From: Polyangiales bacterium
Lineage (GTDB): Bacteria > Myxococcota_A > Polyangia > Polyangiales > JAWKRM01
Direction: 5' to 3'
Assembly: GCA_041389625.1 (NCBI GenBank)
Contig: JAWKRM010000003.1
Location: 101,636 to 165,635, forward strand
Length of the DNA: 64,000 nt
Positions within the stretch are counted from its first letter, which is position 1; the number at the start of each line of letters is the position of its first letter. The notes under the pieces are model-generated. The model was not told the origin of the DNA. It ran no database searches and saw only the letters and a list, made by a program, of their open reading frames with translations. Shown in pieces: positions 31,836-41,262 of the stretch. The position numbers and the translations under genes are program-made.

Positions 31836-32288
31836 CTACGGCTTCGCGCGACGGCGTGTGGTCGCGCCTTCGACGCGGAGTCCGAGCATTCGCCACGCGC
31901 GCGGGTCGAGTTGGTATGCCGACTGCGTTCGCTCCACGACGGTGCGGAGGCGCGGGTCGTCGGGCAGCTTGCGCGGTTTGATCCCGTGTTCGCGCAGGCT
32001 TGACGGCGTTTCGCCCAGGCGAAGGAGTTCATCGATGTGCGTGACGAAATCGATGGGCTTGAGGGGCTGACCACGACGCCCTTCGCGCGCCTCCTTGAGG
32101 AGGCGCTTCCTGCGCCGCTCGGTGCGTCCGTCGTGCTGCGGTCCGCCGCCGAGGGATTCGACGAGGGTGTTGAGCGCGCGGGCCGCCCTGCGTTTCTCCA
32201 CCGCCTCCCGACTGCCTCGTCCCTTGCCCGCCACGCTGCCCCCGCTGCTCGCCCCCGAATGGGAGCCGCGGAGCATACCAAAAGGCAT
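31836..32288 (-). CDS. hypothetical basic protein
   Basis: 150-aa ORF with a protein-like C-terminal half (..KPIDFVTHIDELLRLGETPSSLREHGIKPRKLPDDPRLRTVVERTQSAYQLDPRAW..). Competing ORFs on both strands are Arg/Ser-rich shadows. Confidence 0.5.
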   Translation of the reverse strand: MPFGMLRGSHSGASSGGSVAGKGRGSREAVEKRRAARALNTLVESLGGGPQHDGRTERRRKRLLKEAREGRRGQPLKPIDFVTHIDELLRLGETPSSLREHGIKPRKLPDDPRLRTVVERTQSAYQLDPRAWRMLGLRVEGATTRRRAKP

Positions 32289-32384
32289 GGGGCGATCCGC
32301 GCGAAAAACCCGAGAATTCCCCCGCTTCGAGATCGCGCTTTGGCGCCTGGCCAGGTGGCCCGCCCGGTGTCATTCTTCCGCGCC

Positions 32385-33233
32385 ATGACTTCCACGCAGC
32401 GCGAAATCGAGGTCTCGTACGACGTCTCGAACGAGTTCTTTAACCTCTGGCTCGACGAGGGCATGCACTACACGAGTGCGAGCTTCTTCTCCGGCAAGGA
32501 GAGCCTCGAGCAGGCCCAGATTCAGAAGTGCAAGATTCTCTACGAGTACGCCGAGATGGCGCCGGAGAAGCTCGTGCTCGACATCGGCTGCGGCTGGGGT
32601 TCGAACCTCGAGTACCTCGTGAGCCGCGGCACGAAGCGCGCCCACGGCATCACGCTCTCGACCGAGCAGGCCAACTGGGTCCACTCGCGCAAGCTCCCCG
32701 GCGTCGACGTCCTCGTCTGCGACTACAAGGACTACGAGCCGAAGGAAAAGTACGACGCGCTCATTTCGATCGAGATGATCGACCACCTCTGCTCGCCCGC
32801 GCAGGCGAACCAGGGCCTCGCCATCGACATCTACCGCGAGTACTTCCGGAAGACGTCGACCTGGGTGAAGCCGGGCTCGTGCTTCGGCTTCCAGGCGATT
32901 CTTCGAAACCGCGTGCCGCGGAACCGGAAGGACCTCGAAGACCTCGCCTTCACCGCCGACGTCATCTTCCCGGGCGGCCTGAACCCGCGCCTCGAAGAGC
33001 TCGTCGCCGCCGTGAATCCCTATTGGGAGGTGCTCGAGCTTCGGACGCAGCGCGAGGCCTACGGCAAGACCACCGGCGAGTGGCTCCGCAAGCTCCAGAT
33101 GCACGAGAAGACCATCCGCGAGAAGTGGGGCGACACCGTGTACGACGACTACGTCCGCTACCTCTCCACCTGCGTGCGCGCCTTCGAGATGCACTACTCG
33201 AGCGACGTGCAGATGAAGCTGCGGAAGATCTAG
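32385..33233 (+). CDS. cyclopropane-fatty-acyl-phospholipid-synthase-like SAM methyltransferase
   Basis: ATG at 32385 gives the CMAS-family N-terminus (VSYDVSNEFFNLWLDEGMHYTSA). SAM motif I is VLDIGCGWGS, and the typical ..ISIEMIDH.. is present. The upstream part of ORF 32037.. is antisense to 31836..32288. Confidence 0.85.
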   Translation: MTSTQREIEVSYDVSNEFFNLWLDEGMHYTSASFFSGKESLEQAQIQKCKILYEYAEMAPEKLVLDIGCGWGSNLEYLVSRGTKRAHGITLSTEQANWVHSRKLPGVDVLVCDYKDYEPKEKYDALISIEMIDHLCSPAQANQGLAIDIYREYFRKTSTWVKPGSCFGFQAILRNRVPRNRKDLEDLAFTADVIFPGGLNPRLEELVAAVNPYWEVLELRTQREAYGKTTGEWLRKLQMHEKTIREKWGDTVYDDYVRYLSTCVRAFEMHYSSDVQMKLRKI

Positions 33234-33254
33234 GCAGCGCGAAACCCGGGAGCC

Positions 33255-33546
33255 AAAGCTGAGCTTTCGGGAAGCGGTCACCGGGACCGAATCTGAAAGC
33301 TGAGCTTTCGAGGGGCGGTCATCGGGACCAAATCTGAAAGCTGAGCTTTCGACAGGCGTTCACCGGGAACCGATTTCCAAGGCTGGGCTTTCCGCATCGG
33401 TTCACGGAGACCCGCGCACCAAAGCTGAGCTTTCCGCGGCGGTTCACGGGGAACCGCGGATGAAAGCTCAGCTTTCGGACGCCGTTGCGGAAGACCCGCG
33501 CATCAAAGCCAGGCTCTCGCCCGTCATCCCAGCCACCTCACGCACG
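33255..33546. repeat. tandem array U: seven 41-42-bp units, each with two short dyads
   Basis: Units start at 33255, 33296, 33337, 33379, 33421, 33463 and 33505. Each opens with (G)AAAGCT-N-AGCTTT(C), followed by CGGT(T)C-N5-G(A)ACCG. Confidence 0.9.
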
Positions 33547-33606
33547 CTCCCCAGCTCAAATTTTTCAATCACTCCGGCCCCCGCCGCAGCCACAAACCCT
33601 CATCCA

Positions 33607-33816
33607 GAGCACCCGGAGTGCCCCAAACCAAGCCCGGAGTTCAAAACCGAGCACCCGGAGTGCGCGAAACCAAGCCCGCAGTTCAACTCCGGGCACTCCG
33701 AGTGCCCCGGATGAAGTCCCAGGTTCAAACCTGGGCACCCCGAGTGCTCCAAGCCGAGCATCGAGCTCAACCCCGGGCACTCCGAGTGCCCCGTGGCGAA
33801 CGTTCAGTTCAACCGA
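33607..33816. repeat. tandem array V: five exact 42-bp units, each with a 17-bp dyad
   Basis: Units start at 33607, 33649, 33691, 33733 and 33775. The dyad is GGGCACTC-C-GAGTGCCC, perfect in units 3 and 5. A downstream (C)AGTTCAA(A/C)C box follows. Confidence 0.9.
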
Positions 33817-33873
33817 GAAGCCAGTCCGCTCGTCGAGCTAAGTGGGAACAGTCGGCCGCCGCGCGAGAAAGAG

Positions 33874-33932
33874 GGGGACACGAGACTCAATTCTCGACGC
33901 TCCGAAATAGGTCTCGTTTCCCCTTGTTTTCG
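33874..33932 (+). terminator. intrinsic-terminator-like hairpin with a T-rich tail
   Basis: GGGGACACGAGAC (33874-33886) pairs with GTCTCGTTTCCCC (33911-33923) at 12 of 13 positions. The loop is 24 nt, unusually large. The tail is TTGTTTT. Confidence 0.45.
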
Positions 33933-34096
33933 CGCCGTACTAGCCACCGCGTCGCGAGAGTCTTCGTACCGGTGGACGCTCGAGCGGCGGCGTGCGCGCC
34001 GCCCACCGACTGCGGGCTCCGTAGGGGCATTCGGTGGTGGCGCAGCGGCCCCCGGCTTGCGGGCGGGTTTTGCGGAGCGGTACACTGCGACGAACG

Positions 34097-35542
34097 ATGG
34101 GGACGACGGACGTTCGCGCACGGGAGGGGGTGGGGCGTCGGTGGAGCCTCTCGGCGCTCGCCTGCGTGGCTCTCGGCGGCTGCCACGATTTCGATGCGCT
34201 TCGGGCATCGGACGGGGGATCGGACACCGAGGCTGCTGTGGAAGCGGGCATGGAGGGGGGCGCGGTCCCGGATCCGATTCGCCCAAGCTTCGTGAGCCCC
34301 AAGAACCTGGCGGCGGCGCTCGCGGGGACCCGGGAGATCATCCTCGAGGGCGGCGTCACCGCGTTGTGGGATGTGGAGTCGGGGGAGCTTCAGGTGAAAG
34401 GTGAAGACGAGCCGAGATTCACACAGGAGCCGCTCGTGGAGTCGCAGGGGGACGGAATGCCCGAACTCGCGGTGTTCCCCGTCGCCCGCCTTGTTGTGAG
34501 CTCGAACGCCACGCTCCAATTCGCCGGCCCCCATGCGGTCGTGCTCTCGGCCAGGGAGGGGATCGACATCGCGGGCACGGTCACCGTCGGCGCGAAGGGG
34601 GGGCTCGGCGGCCCCGGCGGCGCGACGTCACTTCCCGAAGTCGGTGAGCTCAGTTTCCCAGTGTCGGGTCAGCAGGGACCGAAAGGCGGGAACGATCTGG
34701 TCAACGCGTACGCATATTCAGGGGCCGGGGGCGGCGGAAATGGGGCGCCGGGCGGCAGCGGTGGCTTCGCATGGGCGAAGAACGGCGTCGGTTCCGCAGC
34801 AAGCGCGCTCGGCGGACCTGGAGGCGCCGCATGGGCGGATGTTTCGGATTGGGATGCTCGTGCGGCGCTCGTCGGCGGCGGGGCGGGCGGGCCGACGCGA
34901 TGCGGAGTCAATTTCGAGGCTCGCGCGCAAGGTGGTGGTGGCGGTGGGGCGCTCCTCCTCGCTTCGCAGCGCAGCATCGTCCTCCGGGCCTCGGGCCGCG
35001 TTTCGGCTCCGGGGGCGGGCGGACCAGCGCCGGTGGACGCGGCCAACTGCGAGCCCGACCGTTCGGTCGCGGGTGCGGGCGGCGGCGCGGGTGGCACGTT
35101 GGTGCTCGAGGCGCCGCGCGTCGAGATAGCGGGTACCGTGGCAGCGAACGGAGGCGGCGGGGCGGGTTCAGGTCGCAACGCGCTGGCGGTCGAGGCCTCC
35201 CGAGGCAAGGTCGGAACGGACGGGCAGCCCGGCATTCAGGTGGCCGGGGGTGGCGCCGCGGGCGCCAACCACGACTCCGGCGACGGCTACAGCTATCGAC
35301 ATAGCGCAGGTGGCTCGGGCGGTGCCGCGGGCGCTTCGCTGGCACCCGGAGCCGAAGGCGTGACTCTCATGCACATGGTCACTGCGCTCCAAAGCATCAG
35401 CAGCATCTCCGGTGGCGGTGGTGGCGGCGCAGGTCGCATCGAGATCCGGACCGCAAGCGGTGTCCGCGATGCGGCTTGGGTGCTCTCGCCCAGCGACGCC
35501 CCGCAGGTTATCGTGGAGCAGGTCATGCCACTCGCGGAGTAG
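34097..35542 (+). CDS. glycine-rich repeat lipoprotein of unknown function
   Basis: ATG at 34097. The lipobox is VALGGC. Recurring G-runs are flanked by short beta-like segments (GGGGGGALLLASQRSIVLRASGRVSAPGAGG; GGGAGGTLVLEAPRVEIAGTVAANGGGGAGSG; GGGGGGAGRIEIRTASG), suggesting a beta-helix-like solenoid. Confidence 0.7.
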   Translation: MGTTDVRAREGVGRRWSLSALACVALGGCHDFDALRASDGGSDTEAAVEAGMEGGAVPDPIRPSFVSPKNLAAALAGTREIILEGGVTALWDVESGELQVKGEDEPRFTQEPLVESQGDGMPELAVFPVARLVVSSNATLQFAGPHAVVLSAREGIDIAGTVTVGAKGGLGGPGGATSLPEVGELSFPVSGQQGPKGGNDLVNAYAYSGAGGGGNGAPGGSGGFAWAKNGVGSAASALGGPGGAAWADVSDWDARAALVGGGAGGPTRCGVNFEARAQGGGGGGALLLASQRSIVLRASGRVSAPGAGGPAPVDAANCEPDRSVAGAGGGAGGTLVLEAPRVEIAGTVAANGGGGAGSGRNALAVEASRGKVGTDGQPGIQVAGGGAAGANHDSGDGYSYRHSAGGSGGAAGASLAPGAEGVTLMHMVTALQSISSISGGGGGGAGRIEIRTASGVRDAAWVLSPSDAPQVIVEQVMPLAE

Positions 35543-35595
35543 GCGTCCAATCCAGCGCTGGAGCGGTTCCTTGGTGGGGCTGAACGCTCACGACA

Positions 35596-35612
35596 GAGCA
35601 CTCGGAGTGCCC
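35596..35612. repeat. solo copy of the V-type dyad
   Basis: GAGCACTC-G-GAGTGCCC is followed by ..caagccgagcc.. The 9-mer aagccgagc is shared with V unit 4. It lies 54 nt after the glycine-rich gene and 179 nt before acnA. Confidence 0.7.
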
Positions 35613-35790
35613 ACTCGCAAGCCGAGCCAAACGCGGCGAAGCACCGAACTTGCTCACCGACATCCCGCCCAACCCTTGTCGCAACAGGCGATCCGACTCA
35701 CCTCTGCCATCCGAATTGAACCGATTTCCCCTCGTCGCCGCCGTTTTCCTGGGGGTTCTTTGGCCCTAGGCCTCGTGGTAGGACAGCGCC

Positions 35791-38457
<2,667 letters not shown>

Positions 38458-38853: not shown

Positions 38854-38869
38854 AGCAAGCCGCGTGCCG
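38854..38869 (-). promoter_or_regulatory. sigma-54 (-24/-12) type promoter
   Basis: The minus strand reads CGGCACG-CGGC-TTGCT against the consensus TGGCACG-N4-TTGCW. GG and GC have the correct spacing. The -12 GC sits about 50 nt upstream of the ATG at 38804. Confidence 0.6.
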
Positions 38870-38943: not shown

Positions 38944-39831
38944 CTACTCCCCGCAGGGAATCGCCTTCGTGCCCACGGCCACGTCGTCGACGTAGGTGGT
39001 GGCGGGGCCCGGCGCGAGGGAACCGCTCGACCAGGTATAGGGGATGGGTAGGAAGAGGTGCTTGTACCCGCCCGGCACGTCGAAGGTGGCCGGTCCGCCG
39101 TTGCCCGTGGCCGGCGACGTCTGCATGTAGAGTGATTCCGTTCCGCCCGCTGGCTTGATGTAGACGGTCTGTTGGGGGGGATCGAAACGGACCTCCGCGC
39201 GGAAGCAGAACCACTTGTTGAGCGGAAGCCCGGCGCCGGCCGTGTCGTGGGCGTAGCTGGTGTTGTCGCCGGTGCCGTCGTAGCGCTCGAAGTAGAAGCC
39301 CGCCCCCGCCTGCGTGCCGGTTCGGCCGAGGGCGTAGTAGCTGATCGCGCCCGAGTTGTCGTTCGGGCGAGCGGTTTCGCTCTCAAAGTCGGCGATATCG
39401 AAATGGACGATGGCATCGTCGTCGGTGCTTTCGTCGTCCGCGATGAAGTAGTACGCACGAAAGTAGAGCGTGCCGTTGTCGATCGCGCTTGAGAGAACGC
39501 CCTTGAGTGCGGAGGTGCCCGGCGCACCATCCACCTTGCCGCGCGCCGCCCCGCTGCCGCTGTGCACGGGCTCTGGCGCGGTGACGCGAATGGCGGGGGT
39601 CTCGGGTGCACCCGTCGGTAGCCAAGCGGACAGCGCGTCATCCTCGAATCCATCGCAGAACACGAGACCGTCGAGGGAGTCACAGTCCAACGGGTTTCCG
39701 CCGGCGCACGCGTCTCCTTCGCACGCGACGGCGCCGTCGGCGGTCGCGCGATCGAAGCCGAAGTCGAAGCAGCCTGCCAAGCAGCTCGCGGCGAGGGCGA
39801 AACACACGCCACGCACGGGCGCACGGTGCAT
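38944..39831 (-). CDS. lipoprotein with a concanavalin-A-like (LamG / lectin-glucanase fold) domain
   Basis: Start is ATG 39831 or 39864. The lipobox is SCLAGC. After a Cys-rich linker comes the typical FCDGFEDDALSAWL.. opening of jelly-roll domains, followed by a beta-rich body. Confidence 0.65.
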   Translation of the reverse strand: MHRAPVRGVCFALAASCLAGCFDFGFDRATADGAVACEGDACAGGNPLDCDSLDGLVFCDGFEDDALSAWLPTGAPETPAIRVTAPEPVHSGSGAARGKVDGAPGTSALKGVLSSAIDNGTLYFRAYYFIADDESTDDDAIVHFDIADFESETARPNDNSGAISYYALGRTGTQAGAGFYFERYDGTGDNTSYAHDTAGAGLPLNKWFCFRAEVRFDPPQQTVYIKPAGGTESLYMQTSPATGNGGPATFDVPGGYKHLFLPIPYTWSSGSLAPGPATTYVDDVAVGTKAIPCGE

Positions 39832-39960
39832 CGGGAACGTCGCGTGGTGGGAGCTCCGATGCATGCGCGAGGAAGCCTACCACGCGTCCTCGCCGCGTCG
39901 TGCGAGCCGCTTCTCCCCATTGGAATTCTCAAGTACGCTGGTCGGCATTCCGCGAACCGC

Positions 39961-41262
39961 ATGAGCAAGCCTTCGAACGATCCCGAGACGCTTGAACAGC
40001 CCGATTTGGTCCGCCTTTTTGGGGTCGTCACCAGGGCGTGTCCCTCCGTGCGATGGACCGATTCCGGGGGCGAGCACGAGTTCATCGTCGAATCGAACCG
40101 CGCCGTCATCGGCTCGGGGGGCGGCGTGGACGTTCAGCTCGCCGATCCACTCGTCTCACGGCTCCATGCGGAGTTCGAGCTTGGCGACAACGGGCTCTGG
40201 GTGACCGACCTCGGAAGCAAGAATGGCTCGTACGTGAACGGCGTTCGCGTGCGTGGCGCACGGATTCCTCCGAATGGGGTGGTGCAACTCGGATCGACGG
40301 AGCTGCGCGTGCACTATGGCGCCCCTCCCATGCCCGTCGATGTCTGGCCCGAAGAGGGGTTCGGGCAACTTGTGGGCAAGTCCGTGCTGATGCGCGAGCT
40401 TTTCGCGAAGCTCGCTCGCATCGCGAAGCTCGATGACGGCGTCTTGATCCAGGGCGAGACGGGCACGGGCAAAGAACTTGTCGCGCGCGCGATTCACGAC
40501 CATTCACCGCGCGCCCAAGCGCCATTCGCAGTGGTCGATTGTGCGGCCCTCCCTGGCAACCTGCTCGAGGTCGAACTGTTTGGGCATGCGAGGGGAGCGT
40601 TCACGGGCGCGTCGGACGCACGGGAGGGCACGATCGAGGCGGCGGCGGGCGGCACGGTGCTCCTCGACGAGATTGGTGAGCTTCCGCTCGAGCTCCAACC
40701 GAAGCTCCTGCGTGTCATCGAGTCCCATTCGCTGCGGCGTCTCGGCGAAACGGAGTTCCGGGAAGTCGACGTTCGCTTCATTGCGGCGACGCACCGGAAC
40801 CTCCGGGAGATGGTCAACAACGGTACGTTTCGTGAAGACCTGTACTTCCGGATCGCGGTATTCCCCGTCCTGATCCCGCCGCTTCGTGATCGCGTCGAAG
40901 ACATCCCATTGCTGATCAAGAAGATGTTCCCGAATCAGCCCGAAGGAACGATTCCGCCCGAACTCATGCGCGTGCTGCGCGAGCGGCCGTGGTCCGGCAA
41001 CGTGCGTGAGCTTCGCAATTTCGTGAATCGAGCCGCCGTGTTCGGTGCTTCGGAGGCGGCGGAGACGATGCAGCGACCCCGGAAGGTCGAAACGAGCGAA
41101 ATGAACTTCTCAGAAGCCCGTACGGAGATGATTCACGCCTTCGAGCGTCAGTACGTCAAGGAACTCCTCGAACGGCATGGGCACAATGTTACGGCGGCGG
41201 CGGAGGCGGCTGGGATCACCCGCGTTTGGCTCCACAAGCTGGTCCGCAAACACTCGCTGTAG
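39961..41262 (+). CDS. sigma-54-dependent transcriptional activator with an N-terminal FHA domain
   Basis: ATG at 39961. The FHA region reads VIGSGGGVDVQLADPLVSRLHAEFELGDNGLWVTDLGSKNGSYVNG. The AAA+ core has GETGTGKE and ELFGHARGAFTGA. The C-terminal Fis-type HTH reads GHNVTAAAEAAGITRVWLHKLVRKH. Confidence 0.9.
   Translation: MSKPSNDPETLEQPDLVRLFGVVTRACPSVRWTDSGGEHEFIVESNRAVIGSGGGVDVQLADPLVSRLHAEFELGDNGLWVTDLGSKNGSYVNGVRVRGARIPPNGVVQLGSTELRVHYGAPPMPVDVWPEEGFGQLVGKSVLMRELFAKLARIAKLDDGVLIQGETGTGKELVARAIHDHSPRAQAPFAVVDCAALPGNLLEVELFGHARGAFTGASDAREGTIEAAAGGTVLLDEIGELPLELQPKLLRVIESHSLRRLGETEFREVDVRFIAATHRNLREMVNNGTFREDLYFRIAVFPVLIPPLRDRVEDIPLLIKKMFPNQPEGTIPPELMRVLRERPWSGNVRELRNFVNRAAVFGASEAAETMQRPRKVETSEMNFSEARTEMIHAFERQYVKELLERHGHNVTAAAEAAGITRVWLHKLVRKHSL

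Follow-up and report, generated by a model that had tools for sequence, protein, structure and literature searches.

A palindromic tandem array in a Polyangiales genome as a probable member of a dispersed, REP/BIME-like repeat family

Results and discussion

Structure of the paired arrays

Array V occupies positions 33607–33816 of a 64,000-nucleotide stretch of the Polyangiales bacterium contig JAWKRM010000003.1 (the whole stretch is referred to below as the window) and stands downstream of a second array, U, at 33254–33545. Together, the two arrays are probably (at roughly 60%) a copy of a dispersed family of non-coding palindromic tandem repeats resembling the repetitive extragenic palindromes (REPs) and the bacterial interspersed mosaic elements (BIMEs) that they compose. 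This family has apparently not been described from myxobacterial genomes and appears to be a variant of a familiar bacterial repeat type; the literature searched for the motif and for myxobacterial REP elements yielded no relevant report. Arrays, spacers, palindromes and hairpins are given throughout without strand.

The five units of array V start at 33607, 33649, 33691, 33733 and 33775, and a repeat finder run on the window returned start-to-start spacings of 42, 42, 42 and 42. Tandem Repeats Finder (TRF) placed the array at 33609–33792 with a period of 42, 4.4 copies, 72% matches and a score of 177, and a higher-order period of 84 bp was the better fit (81% matches). The initial annotation of this DNA, made from the letters alone, had spoken of five exact 42-bp units, which is correct for the period but not for the sequence, the pairwise identity of the units being 0.60–0.88 with the linker part included. 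Each unit contains a 17-bp palindrome, GGGCACTC-C-GAGTGCCC (= GGGCACTCNGAGTGCCC), located at 33607–33623, 33649–33665, 33691–33707, 33733–33749 and 33775–33791. It has no mismatch in units 3 and 5, two in units 1 and 4, and three in unit 2, and the scan agrees here with what had been read by eye. The centre base of the palindrome flips by unit (G, G, C, C, C), the whole units being otherwise direct repeats. When up to three mismatches were allowed, the palindrome matched nine times in the 64-kb window against 0.67 expected, and none of 100 shuffles reached nine. The AGTTCAA-type box noted earlier is present in all five units in the form RGYTCAAMNC, 14 nt past the palindrome end (starts at 33637, 33679, 33721, 33763 and 33805), and the inverted repeat said to embed it at the junction of units 3 and 4 was located at 33717–33734 as the hairpin CCCAGGTT-CA-AACCTGGG.

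Array U consists of seven units with periods of 41, 41, 42, 42, 42 and 42 bp, the last unit being degenerate. Each unit combines the palindrome GAAAGCT-N-AGCTTTC with a second small inverted repeat, (C)GGTC/GTTC-N5-GACC/GAAC(G). U and V are indeed different sequence families, as first proposed, whereas the common period ascribed to them needs correction, U mixing 41 and 42 bp. The comparison supports one architecture for both, namely a 15–17-bp palindrome plus linker at a 41–42-bp period. The spacer between them (33546–33606) is relatively A/T-rich, with AAATTTTTCAATCA ... CAGCCACAA, and is partly conserved in the related composite described below.

Occurrence of the palindrome arrays in other genomes

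Arrays of the same palindrome were sought in one genome per species of GTDB, where two perfect cores GCACYCSGAGTGC had to lie 33–53 bp apart (start to start), and in metagenomes, where two perfect cores were demanded at a period restricted to 39–45 bp. Because of this demand, the core conservation and the range of periods among the arrays found are partly imposed.

The genome scan returned three arrays on three contigs of one metagenome-assembled genome (MAG) named ‘uncultured Sorangium’, each with 11–14 units at periods of mostly 42 bp, with 41 and 43 bp interspersed. It also returned 43-bp arrays in two Arcicella species (Bacteroidota, 33–37% GC), and its other matches were plainly coding Pro/Gly-rich repeats or arrays with other periods. 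Among the 34 contigs from the metagenome scan, about 20 are GC-rich non-coding arrays with periods of 41–44 bp, including a fourth array of 16 units (L040); single samples yielded several array contigs, re-isolates of the Sorangium-MAG loci among them. Dispersal is seen, then, as at least three arrays on separate contigs of one related MAG and as several contigs per metagenome. The possibility, raised at the outset, that the palindrome is a ubiquitous genomic repeat holds insofar as the family recurs in related genomes, but not within the 64-kb window, where the V palindrome family comprises the array V locus and one solitary copy at 35596. The V and U patterns had no match in viral contigs and none in a plasmid collection, and a plasmid or phage origin was rejected on these grounds.

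Over 111 unique units, the consensus is RRGCACTC-N-GAGTGCYY with a nearly invariant core. The centre is unconstrained (G 57, C 47, A 5, T 2), and the symmetry ends at ±8. The linkers, by comparison, are entirely different between arrays; they often come in two or three alternating subtypes, which gives higher-order periods of 84 or 126 bp, and in many arrays they hold a small GGTC-N-GACC-type inverted repeat, as in array U. The arrays are found on the 3′ side of genes, on the 5′ side or between divergent genes, and their neighbours are unrelated housekeeping genes, encoding a fatty-acid desaturase, an aminotransferase, an H+-PPase, Uma2, a methyltransferase and an extracytoplasmic function (ECF) sigma factor. 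At L007 (2769–3590), the open reading frame (ORF) of an IS21-family transposase, covering the N-terminal part (about 193 of 294 profile positions), ends where a 12-unit V-type array begins; the rest of the IS21 element was not found downstream of that array.

The Arcicella arrays (TAATGCACTCNGAGTGCTCTATAAGACCGCTTCGAGTGAACTC, 43-bp period) share the same 13-bp palindromic core and occur at several loci in Arcicella rosea and A. gelida (L010, L013, L019) and in L035, L037 and L052. At one locus that is orthologous in the two species and follows an oxidoreductase-like gene, one species has 5 units and the other 11, and in A. rosea a look-alike array is positioned between a stop codon and an intrinsic terminator. 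The match of these arrays to the myxobacterial ones could be a coincidence, since a palindromic 13-mer has only six independent positions.

Comparison of the locus with relatives

The U–spacer–V block recurs in a 1.3-kb contig (L059) of the MAG GCA_020431105.1, which supports treating U and V as one composite. The contig starts inside U; about 100 bp of spacer, in which the A/T-rich patch and CAGCCACAA are again found, and five V units come next. Its identity to the window is 68% over 368 bp (U, spacer and V), and the homology stops after the last V unit; the gene that follows the composite in L059 has no homology to the gene for a 481-aa protein that follows it in the window. Two V-unit subtypes are common to both composites, one consisting of CACCCGGAGTG + CCAAACCRAGCC and the other of CACYCCGAGTG + TCCRAGCCGAGCAT. 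Because these subtypes are ordered differently in the window and in L059, V units evidently turn over within arrays.

In the window, array U begins 20 nt past the stop codon of a gene for a CMAS-type SAM methyltransferase (32385–33233, plus strand, annotated as 282 aa). The interval from this gene to the aconitase gene (35791–38457, plus strand), that is, 33234–35790 or about 2.5 kb, contains U, V, a hairpin, the gene for the 481-aa hypothetical protein R3A78_02855 (34097–35542, plus strand), a solitary V unit and possibly a U remnant. In L060 (GCA_020431065.1), whose CMAS has 83% amino acid identity, the aconitase gene comes 93 bp after the CMAS stop (1086–1178), and L060 and the window have conserved sequence immediately before the aconitase start. 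As CMAS and aconitase are only 93 bp apart there, the 2.5-kb block is lineage-specific. The closest other CMAS relatives (87% and 81% amino acid identity) have unrelated convergent genes within 40–60 bp and no palindrome. Arrays as a conserved feature of the CMAS locus were rejected accordingly, the loci at 87%, 83% and 81% identity all having short spacers without arrays, and the idea that the arrays travel with the 481-aa gene failed on its distant homologues (L061 and L062), which have no flanking arrays.

The solitary V-type palindrome of the window, GAGCACTCGGAGTGCCC, lies at 35596–35612 with one mismatch, 54 nt past the stop of the 481-aa gene and ahead of the aconitase gene. It is followed by the V linker motif CAAGCCGAGC, the unit extending to 35643, and constitutes a sixth family member outside the array. 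A 12-nt sequence at 35718–35729, GAACCGATTTCC, matches the end of U unit 3 exactly, a weak similarity (E = 0.01) that may mark a U-unit remnant. The 481-aa gene is bracketed by family repeats in direct orientation.

These comparisons also bear on the suggestion of the initial annotation that array V is a private site for a neighbouring regulator. This was not upheld: the same arrays occur at unrelated loci in every orientation, the downstream gene differs in L059 and the array is absent in L060.

Resemblance to REP/BIME systems and proposed model

REPs often form regularly spaced clusters, the BIMEs, and are bound by gyrase, IHF and Pol I (PMC2817692); REP/BIME systems are known from Enterobacteria, Pseudomonas and Xanthomonas (PMC2817692, PMC3116915). 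Like them, the present family consists of short extragenic palindromes at many unrelated intergenic sites, represented at this locus by the 17-bp palindrome within an 863-bp non-coding gap. It likewise includes both solitary copies and regularly spaced clusters with alternating linker types (the 84- and 126-bp periods), shows presence or absence at orthologous sites in relatives and is sometimes found beside insertion sequence (IS) remnants. In contrast to REP/BIME systems, the units here are in direct tandem at a strict 41–44-bp period, the palindrome is shorter (15–17 bp) and nearly perfect, a GTAG-type head is lacking, no REP-associated tyrosine transposase (RAYT) was found, and the copy number in the source genome would, judging from 64 kb, be low. 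The spacing is thus regular while the orientation does not alternate, and membership in REP/BIME proper is not established.

The repeating unit is the near-perfect palindrome RRGCACTC-N-GAGTGCYY with a fast-evolving linker of about 25 bp. In the proposed model, duplication of units and unequal recombination would lengthen, shorten and rearrange the arrays, and new arrays would arise at new intergenic sites through some mobility mechanism. The most likely activity of the palindromes would be their recognition at the DNA level by a symmetric dimeric protein, with the sites on one helix face. This recognition of double-stranded DNA is suggested because the palindrome and the 42–43-bp spacing (about four helical turns) persist while linkers and pairing drift. 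The binder might be a dedicated transposase or nuclease or a host DNA-binding protein, and any influence on the flanking genes, such as that of hairpins in the 3′ region of CMAS, would be incidental. From sequence considerations, then, the early proposal of sites for a dimeric binder is plausible in view of the conserved core, the free centre and the phasing of about four turns, but its locus-specific form could not be kept.

Several observations weigh against the assignment to a REP/BIME-like family. The copies in the window amount to one array and one solitary unit, far below REP densities of more than 100 per genome, and conservation and periods were in part built into the scans by the requirement for a pair of perfect cores at a fixed distance. 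Neither a RAYT nor any other dedicated transposase was found near an array, and Y1_Tnp had no match among about 45 neighbouring proteins scanned. Moreover, the direct tandem arrangement departs from the alternating orientation typical of BIMEs. The U–spacer–V order, kept in two genomes with five V units in both, could point to a specific function rather than to a selfish repeat, and the strict spacing of about four turns with unrelated linkers also fits a scaffold with a function for the host.

If the family assignment is correct, phased palindromic tandem repeats of an undescribed family are present in Polyangiales-type myxobacteria. For annotation, the consequence is already visible, in that a gene caller has made a spurious 84-aa ‘protein’ of this array. 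The arrays stand at many contig ends and probably break MAG assemblies. They would also be a source of intergenic plasticity, accompanying here a lineage-specific insertion of 2.5 kb between two conserved genes. Should the phasing and the core reflect a dedicated binder, the arrays would be high-avidity landing pads and could reveal a new system of DNA binding or mobility in a phylum that has been little studied. On the other hand, repeated extragenic palindromes are common in bacteria, and a specific regulatory role at this locus finds no support in the present data.

Phased protein-binding scaffolds

The foremost alternative to the dispersed-repeat model is a phased scaffold with a host function, in which a dimer would occupy each palindrome on the same helix face every four turns and array U would bind a second protein. 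We regard it as unlikely. The nucleoprotein complex that the two proteins would build might serve as a centromere of the sopC kind or for condensation, might organise the nucleoid, or might be an enhancer/promoter module. It accords with the 42–43-bp phasing, which persists although the linkers are unrelated and although U has a palindrome of its own, as well as with the conserved core around a free centre base and with the U–spacer–V order retained in L059. On the opposite side, several arrays occur per genome at unrelated loci, some of them flanked by convergent or co-directional genes, a setting that calls for no promoter. L060 has no array in its orthologous spacer, and the composite is followed by different genes in the window and in L059. 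The distribution of periods on which the phasing argument draws is itself biased by the search design.

The geometry of sopC from plasmid F is similar: SopB binds there to 16-bp inverted repeats, one in each of 12 direct repeats of 43 bp (PMC3177203). In the arrays, too, repeats of about this length follow one another directly, every one carries an inverted repeat, and the sites are spaced by about four helical turns. However, sopC is a single plasmid locus beside sopAB, whereas several arrays are present here per chromosome-like MAG. The palindrome is also a different one, there is no plasmid or viral match, and neither ParA nor ParB was found among the 16 neighbouring proteins scanned (about 12 kb). 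Direct repeats with an inverted repeat are thus common to both, and an adjacent parA/parB pair with one locus per replicon is not.

In the promoter version of the scaffold, array U would provide sites for an enhancer-binding protein (EBP), the A/T-rich spacer a bend, and array V sigma-54-like GG-N10-GC sites. Sigma-54 promoters have the consensus GG-N10-GC in a TGGCAC-N5-TTGC-like context. Judged against this consensus, GGGCAC-N5-GTGC fits the −24/−12 spacing on at least one strand in four of the five V units, and the V units are among the better crude sigma-54-like matches in the window. In addition, a sigma-54 activator with an FHA domain is encoded at 39622–41262, 5.8 kb away. Against a sigma-54 function, most units of the family read GAGCAC, without the obligatory GG; about 40% of the family units have no GG on either strand, and in L016 and in Arcicella this is true of every unit. 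By the same consensus, the best crude match to a sigma-54 site in the window is CGGCACGCGGCTTGCT, on the minus strand at 38854–38869, between the aconitase gene and the gene preceding the activator with the FHA domain.

A bolder form of the same idea takes RRGCACTC-N-GAGTGCYY, recurring every four helical turns, as the loading site of a conserved, sequence-specific dimeric DNA-binding protein. Assembled on one helix face, this protein would form a chromosomal sopC-like nucleoprotein array; the core and the 43-bp period of Arcicella would be shared across phyla and not coincidental, and U–spacer–V, kept in two Myxococcota genomes, would be a two-protein module. This is distinctly unlikely; in its two-protein form, the module is possible as an EBP/sigma-54 sink or as a domain-organising site.

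RNA-level functions

Transcription of the arrays as the 3′ untranslated region (UTR) of CMAS, or as an independent non-coding RNA whose hairpins act as barriers to 3′-exonucleases, as terminators or as a protein sponge, is improbable. The arrays begin 20 nt past the CMAS stop, with a strong hairpin (33861–33937) after them, and the placement of the A. rosea look-alike array ahead of an intrinsic terminator is of the same kind. REPs are known to stabilise mRNAs (PMC3479197). On either strand the region also folds far better than its shuffles (z = −6.3 and −7.5), as is expected of any palindrome array. When units are folded one at a time, the stability of 1, 2 and 4 does not exceed that of shuffled sequence.

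A covariation test on an alignment of eleven V units from the window and L059 spoke against a conserved RNA structure. On the structure tested, 72% of the alignment cells pair, as against 69% in shuffles, and helix 2 is paired to only 58%. The palindrome helix in these units is either invariant or simply broken, and neither the paired fraction nor the covariation score was convincingly above the shuffles (30/500 and 56/500, respectively). Over the 111 units of the family, covariation was weak and limited to ±7 (64 Watson–Crick pairs against 47 expected). The balance of G-U versus A-C mismatches, as we read it, favours opposite strands in U and in V, and elsewhere the arrays lie in divergent promoter regions. 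A conserved RNA fold was rejected, there being no covariation and single units often being no better than shuffles.

Known RNAs fared no better. Rfam gave only sub-threshold noise from miRNA models on the window, and 14 related loci had no match at the gathering score, so that a known RNA family was rejected for both. With neither an Rfam match nor support from covariation, the composite structured RNA that the initial annotation had considered conceivable is not supported. A CsrA sponge of the CsrB/RsmZ type was also discarded: GGA motifs number 13 on the plus and 12 on the minus strand (A.GGA one and none), without being positioned in loops, and the palindrome centre varies among G, C, A and T. 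Passive effects at the RNA level may nevertheless occur at the arrays, whose position fits a 3′ UTR.

Coding potential of the arrays

That the arrays encode a 14-aa repeat, (E/G)H(P/S)EC(P/A/S)KPSPxFxx, either in the ORF 33460–33714 (84 aa) or as a multi-core precursor peptide, is scarcely credible. The starts of the V units coincide with codon starts, the GC content at third codon positions (GC3) is 0.83 in the repeat frame across V, and a gene caller did call the 84-aa ORF (P0170). However, the GC3 signal comes from only 14 independent codons, and the only frame that reads (E/G)H(P/S)EC is closed by a TGA stop in V unit 3 (33712–33714, plus strand), which ends the ORF. The differences between units are nearly all non-synonymous, and both strands read GHSEC, the core being palindromic. 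Moreover, the 41-bp periods in U, and the mixture of 41, 42 and 43 bp in related V-type arrays, would not keep a frame, and the Arcicella arrays contain no open frame longer than 108 nt.

Searches for protein relatives agree with these findings. In a HMMER scan of 1.84 billion representative proteins, the 84-aa ORF matched only itself and P0171, the conceptual translation of the homologous array on L059. In P0171, the U palindrome is read as KLSF and in the ORF of the window as KAQLS, the nucleotides thus being conserved and the frame not. The EHSEC-repeat translation of array L040 found two weak matches among 5.8 billion proteins and no protein family. A coding repeat was rejected on the stop codon, the 41- and 43-bp periods, the frame shift between homologous arrays and the lack of protein relatives, and the non-coding status first assigned to the arrays is confirmed by the same stop, variable period and frame shift. 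P0170, spanning U, the spacer and V, is by these signs almost certainly a spurious gene call on repeat DNA.

Other known repeat systems

Mycobacterial interspersed repetitive units (MIRUs), which are intergenic variable-number tandem repeats, have tandem units of about 40–100 bp, and many of them keep small ORFs in frame with the flanking genes. The present arrays resemble them as intergenic tandem units whose number varies between relatives (5 versus 11 in the Arcicella look-alike), but MIRUs are not built round a perfect palindrome. As in CRISPR arrays, a short, partly palindromic repeat alternates with a segment about as long; for CRISPR, however, a period of 42 bp and a repeat of 17 bp are too short, and the ‘spacers’ are mutually homologous. 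CRISPR was rejected since the whole 42-bp units are 60–88% identical and no cas genes were found among the neighbours scanned.

The CIRCE operator (controlling inverted repeat of chaperone expression) of HrcA, TTAGCACTC-N9-GAGTGCTAA, is a 9-bp inverted repeat with a 9-nt spacer. Its half-sites (A)GCACTC and GAGTGC(T) are identical to those of the present family, which is a resemblance only: the spacer is 1 nt here instead of 9, on which count a CIRCE/HrcA operator was rejected, the copies run to tens in tandem, and the arrays are not upstream of chaperone genes. Neither the CIRCE nor the sigma-54 resemblance explains the family as a whole.

Features surrounding the arrays

The non-coding gap between the CMAS stop (33233) and the next annotated start (34097) measures 863 bp, in agreement with the initial estimate of about 860 bp. 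The initial annotation had called this gap exceptional; on a crude GC3-filtered ORF map, the window has other gaps of 0.7–1.7 kb, which possibly contain genes missed by the filter. The mechanically delimited CMAS ORF, 32037–33233, would encode 398 aa; as the annotated protein and all close homologues have 282–289 aa, the real start is taken to lie near 32385.

The hairpin at 33861–33937, between array V and the next gene, is long (77 nt) and imperfect, with arms of about 26 bp. Its folding energy is −45.9 kcal/mol (z = −3.8). With the T-run inside the stem, it departs from the classical terminator and may be a terminator-like or bidirectional stem. The hairpin is not shared by L059, the alignment being without homology beyond the fifth V unit. 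The 481-aa protein R3A78_02855, encoded in the block that separates CMAS from aconitase, had no match in Pfam or NCBIfam, and its gene has a paralogue on the same contig (P0002).

Palindrome-bearing tandem arrays seem to be widespread and largely uncatalogued. Related palindromes are arrayed at other periods in Limnocylindrales sequences (L001/L002), with CAGCACTCCGGGTGCTG every 49–50 bp, and in Kribbella sp. (L012, 2145–2411), where GCACCCCGGGTGC recurs every 25–26 bp in 11 copies. Among the metagenome matches, three contigs of JAAUXT01 (L024, L036 and L038) contain (CA)n microsatellites and look eukaryotic; their satellites of 43–46 bp have the core only in part (GCACTCTGGGTGC) and bear no relation to the bacterial family.

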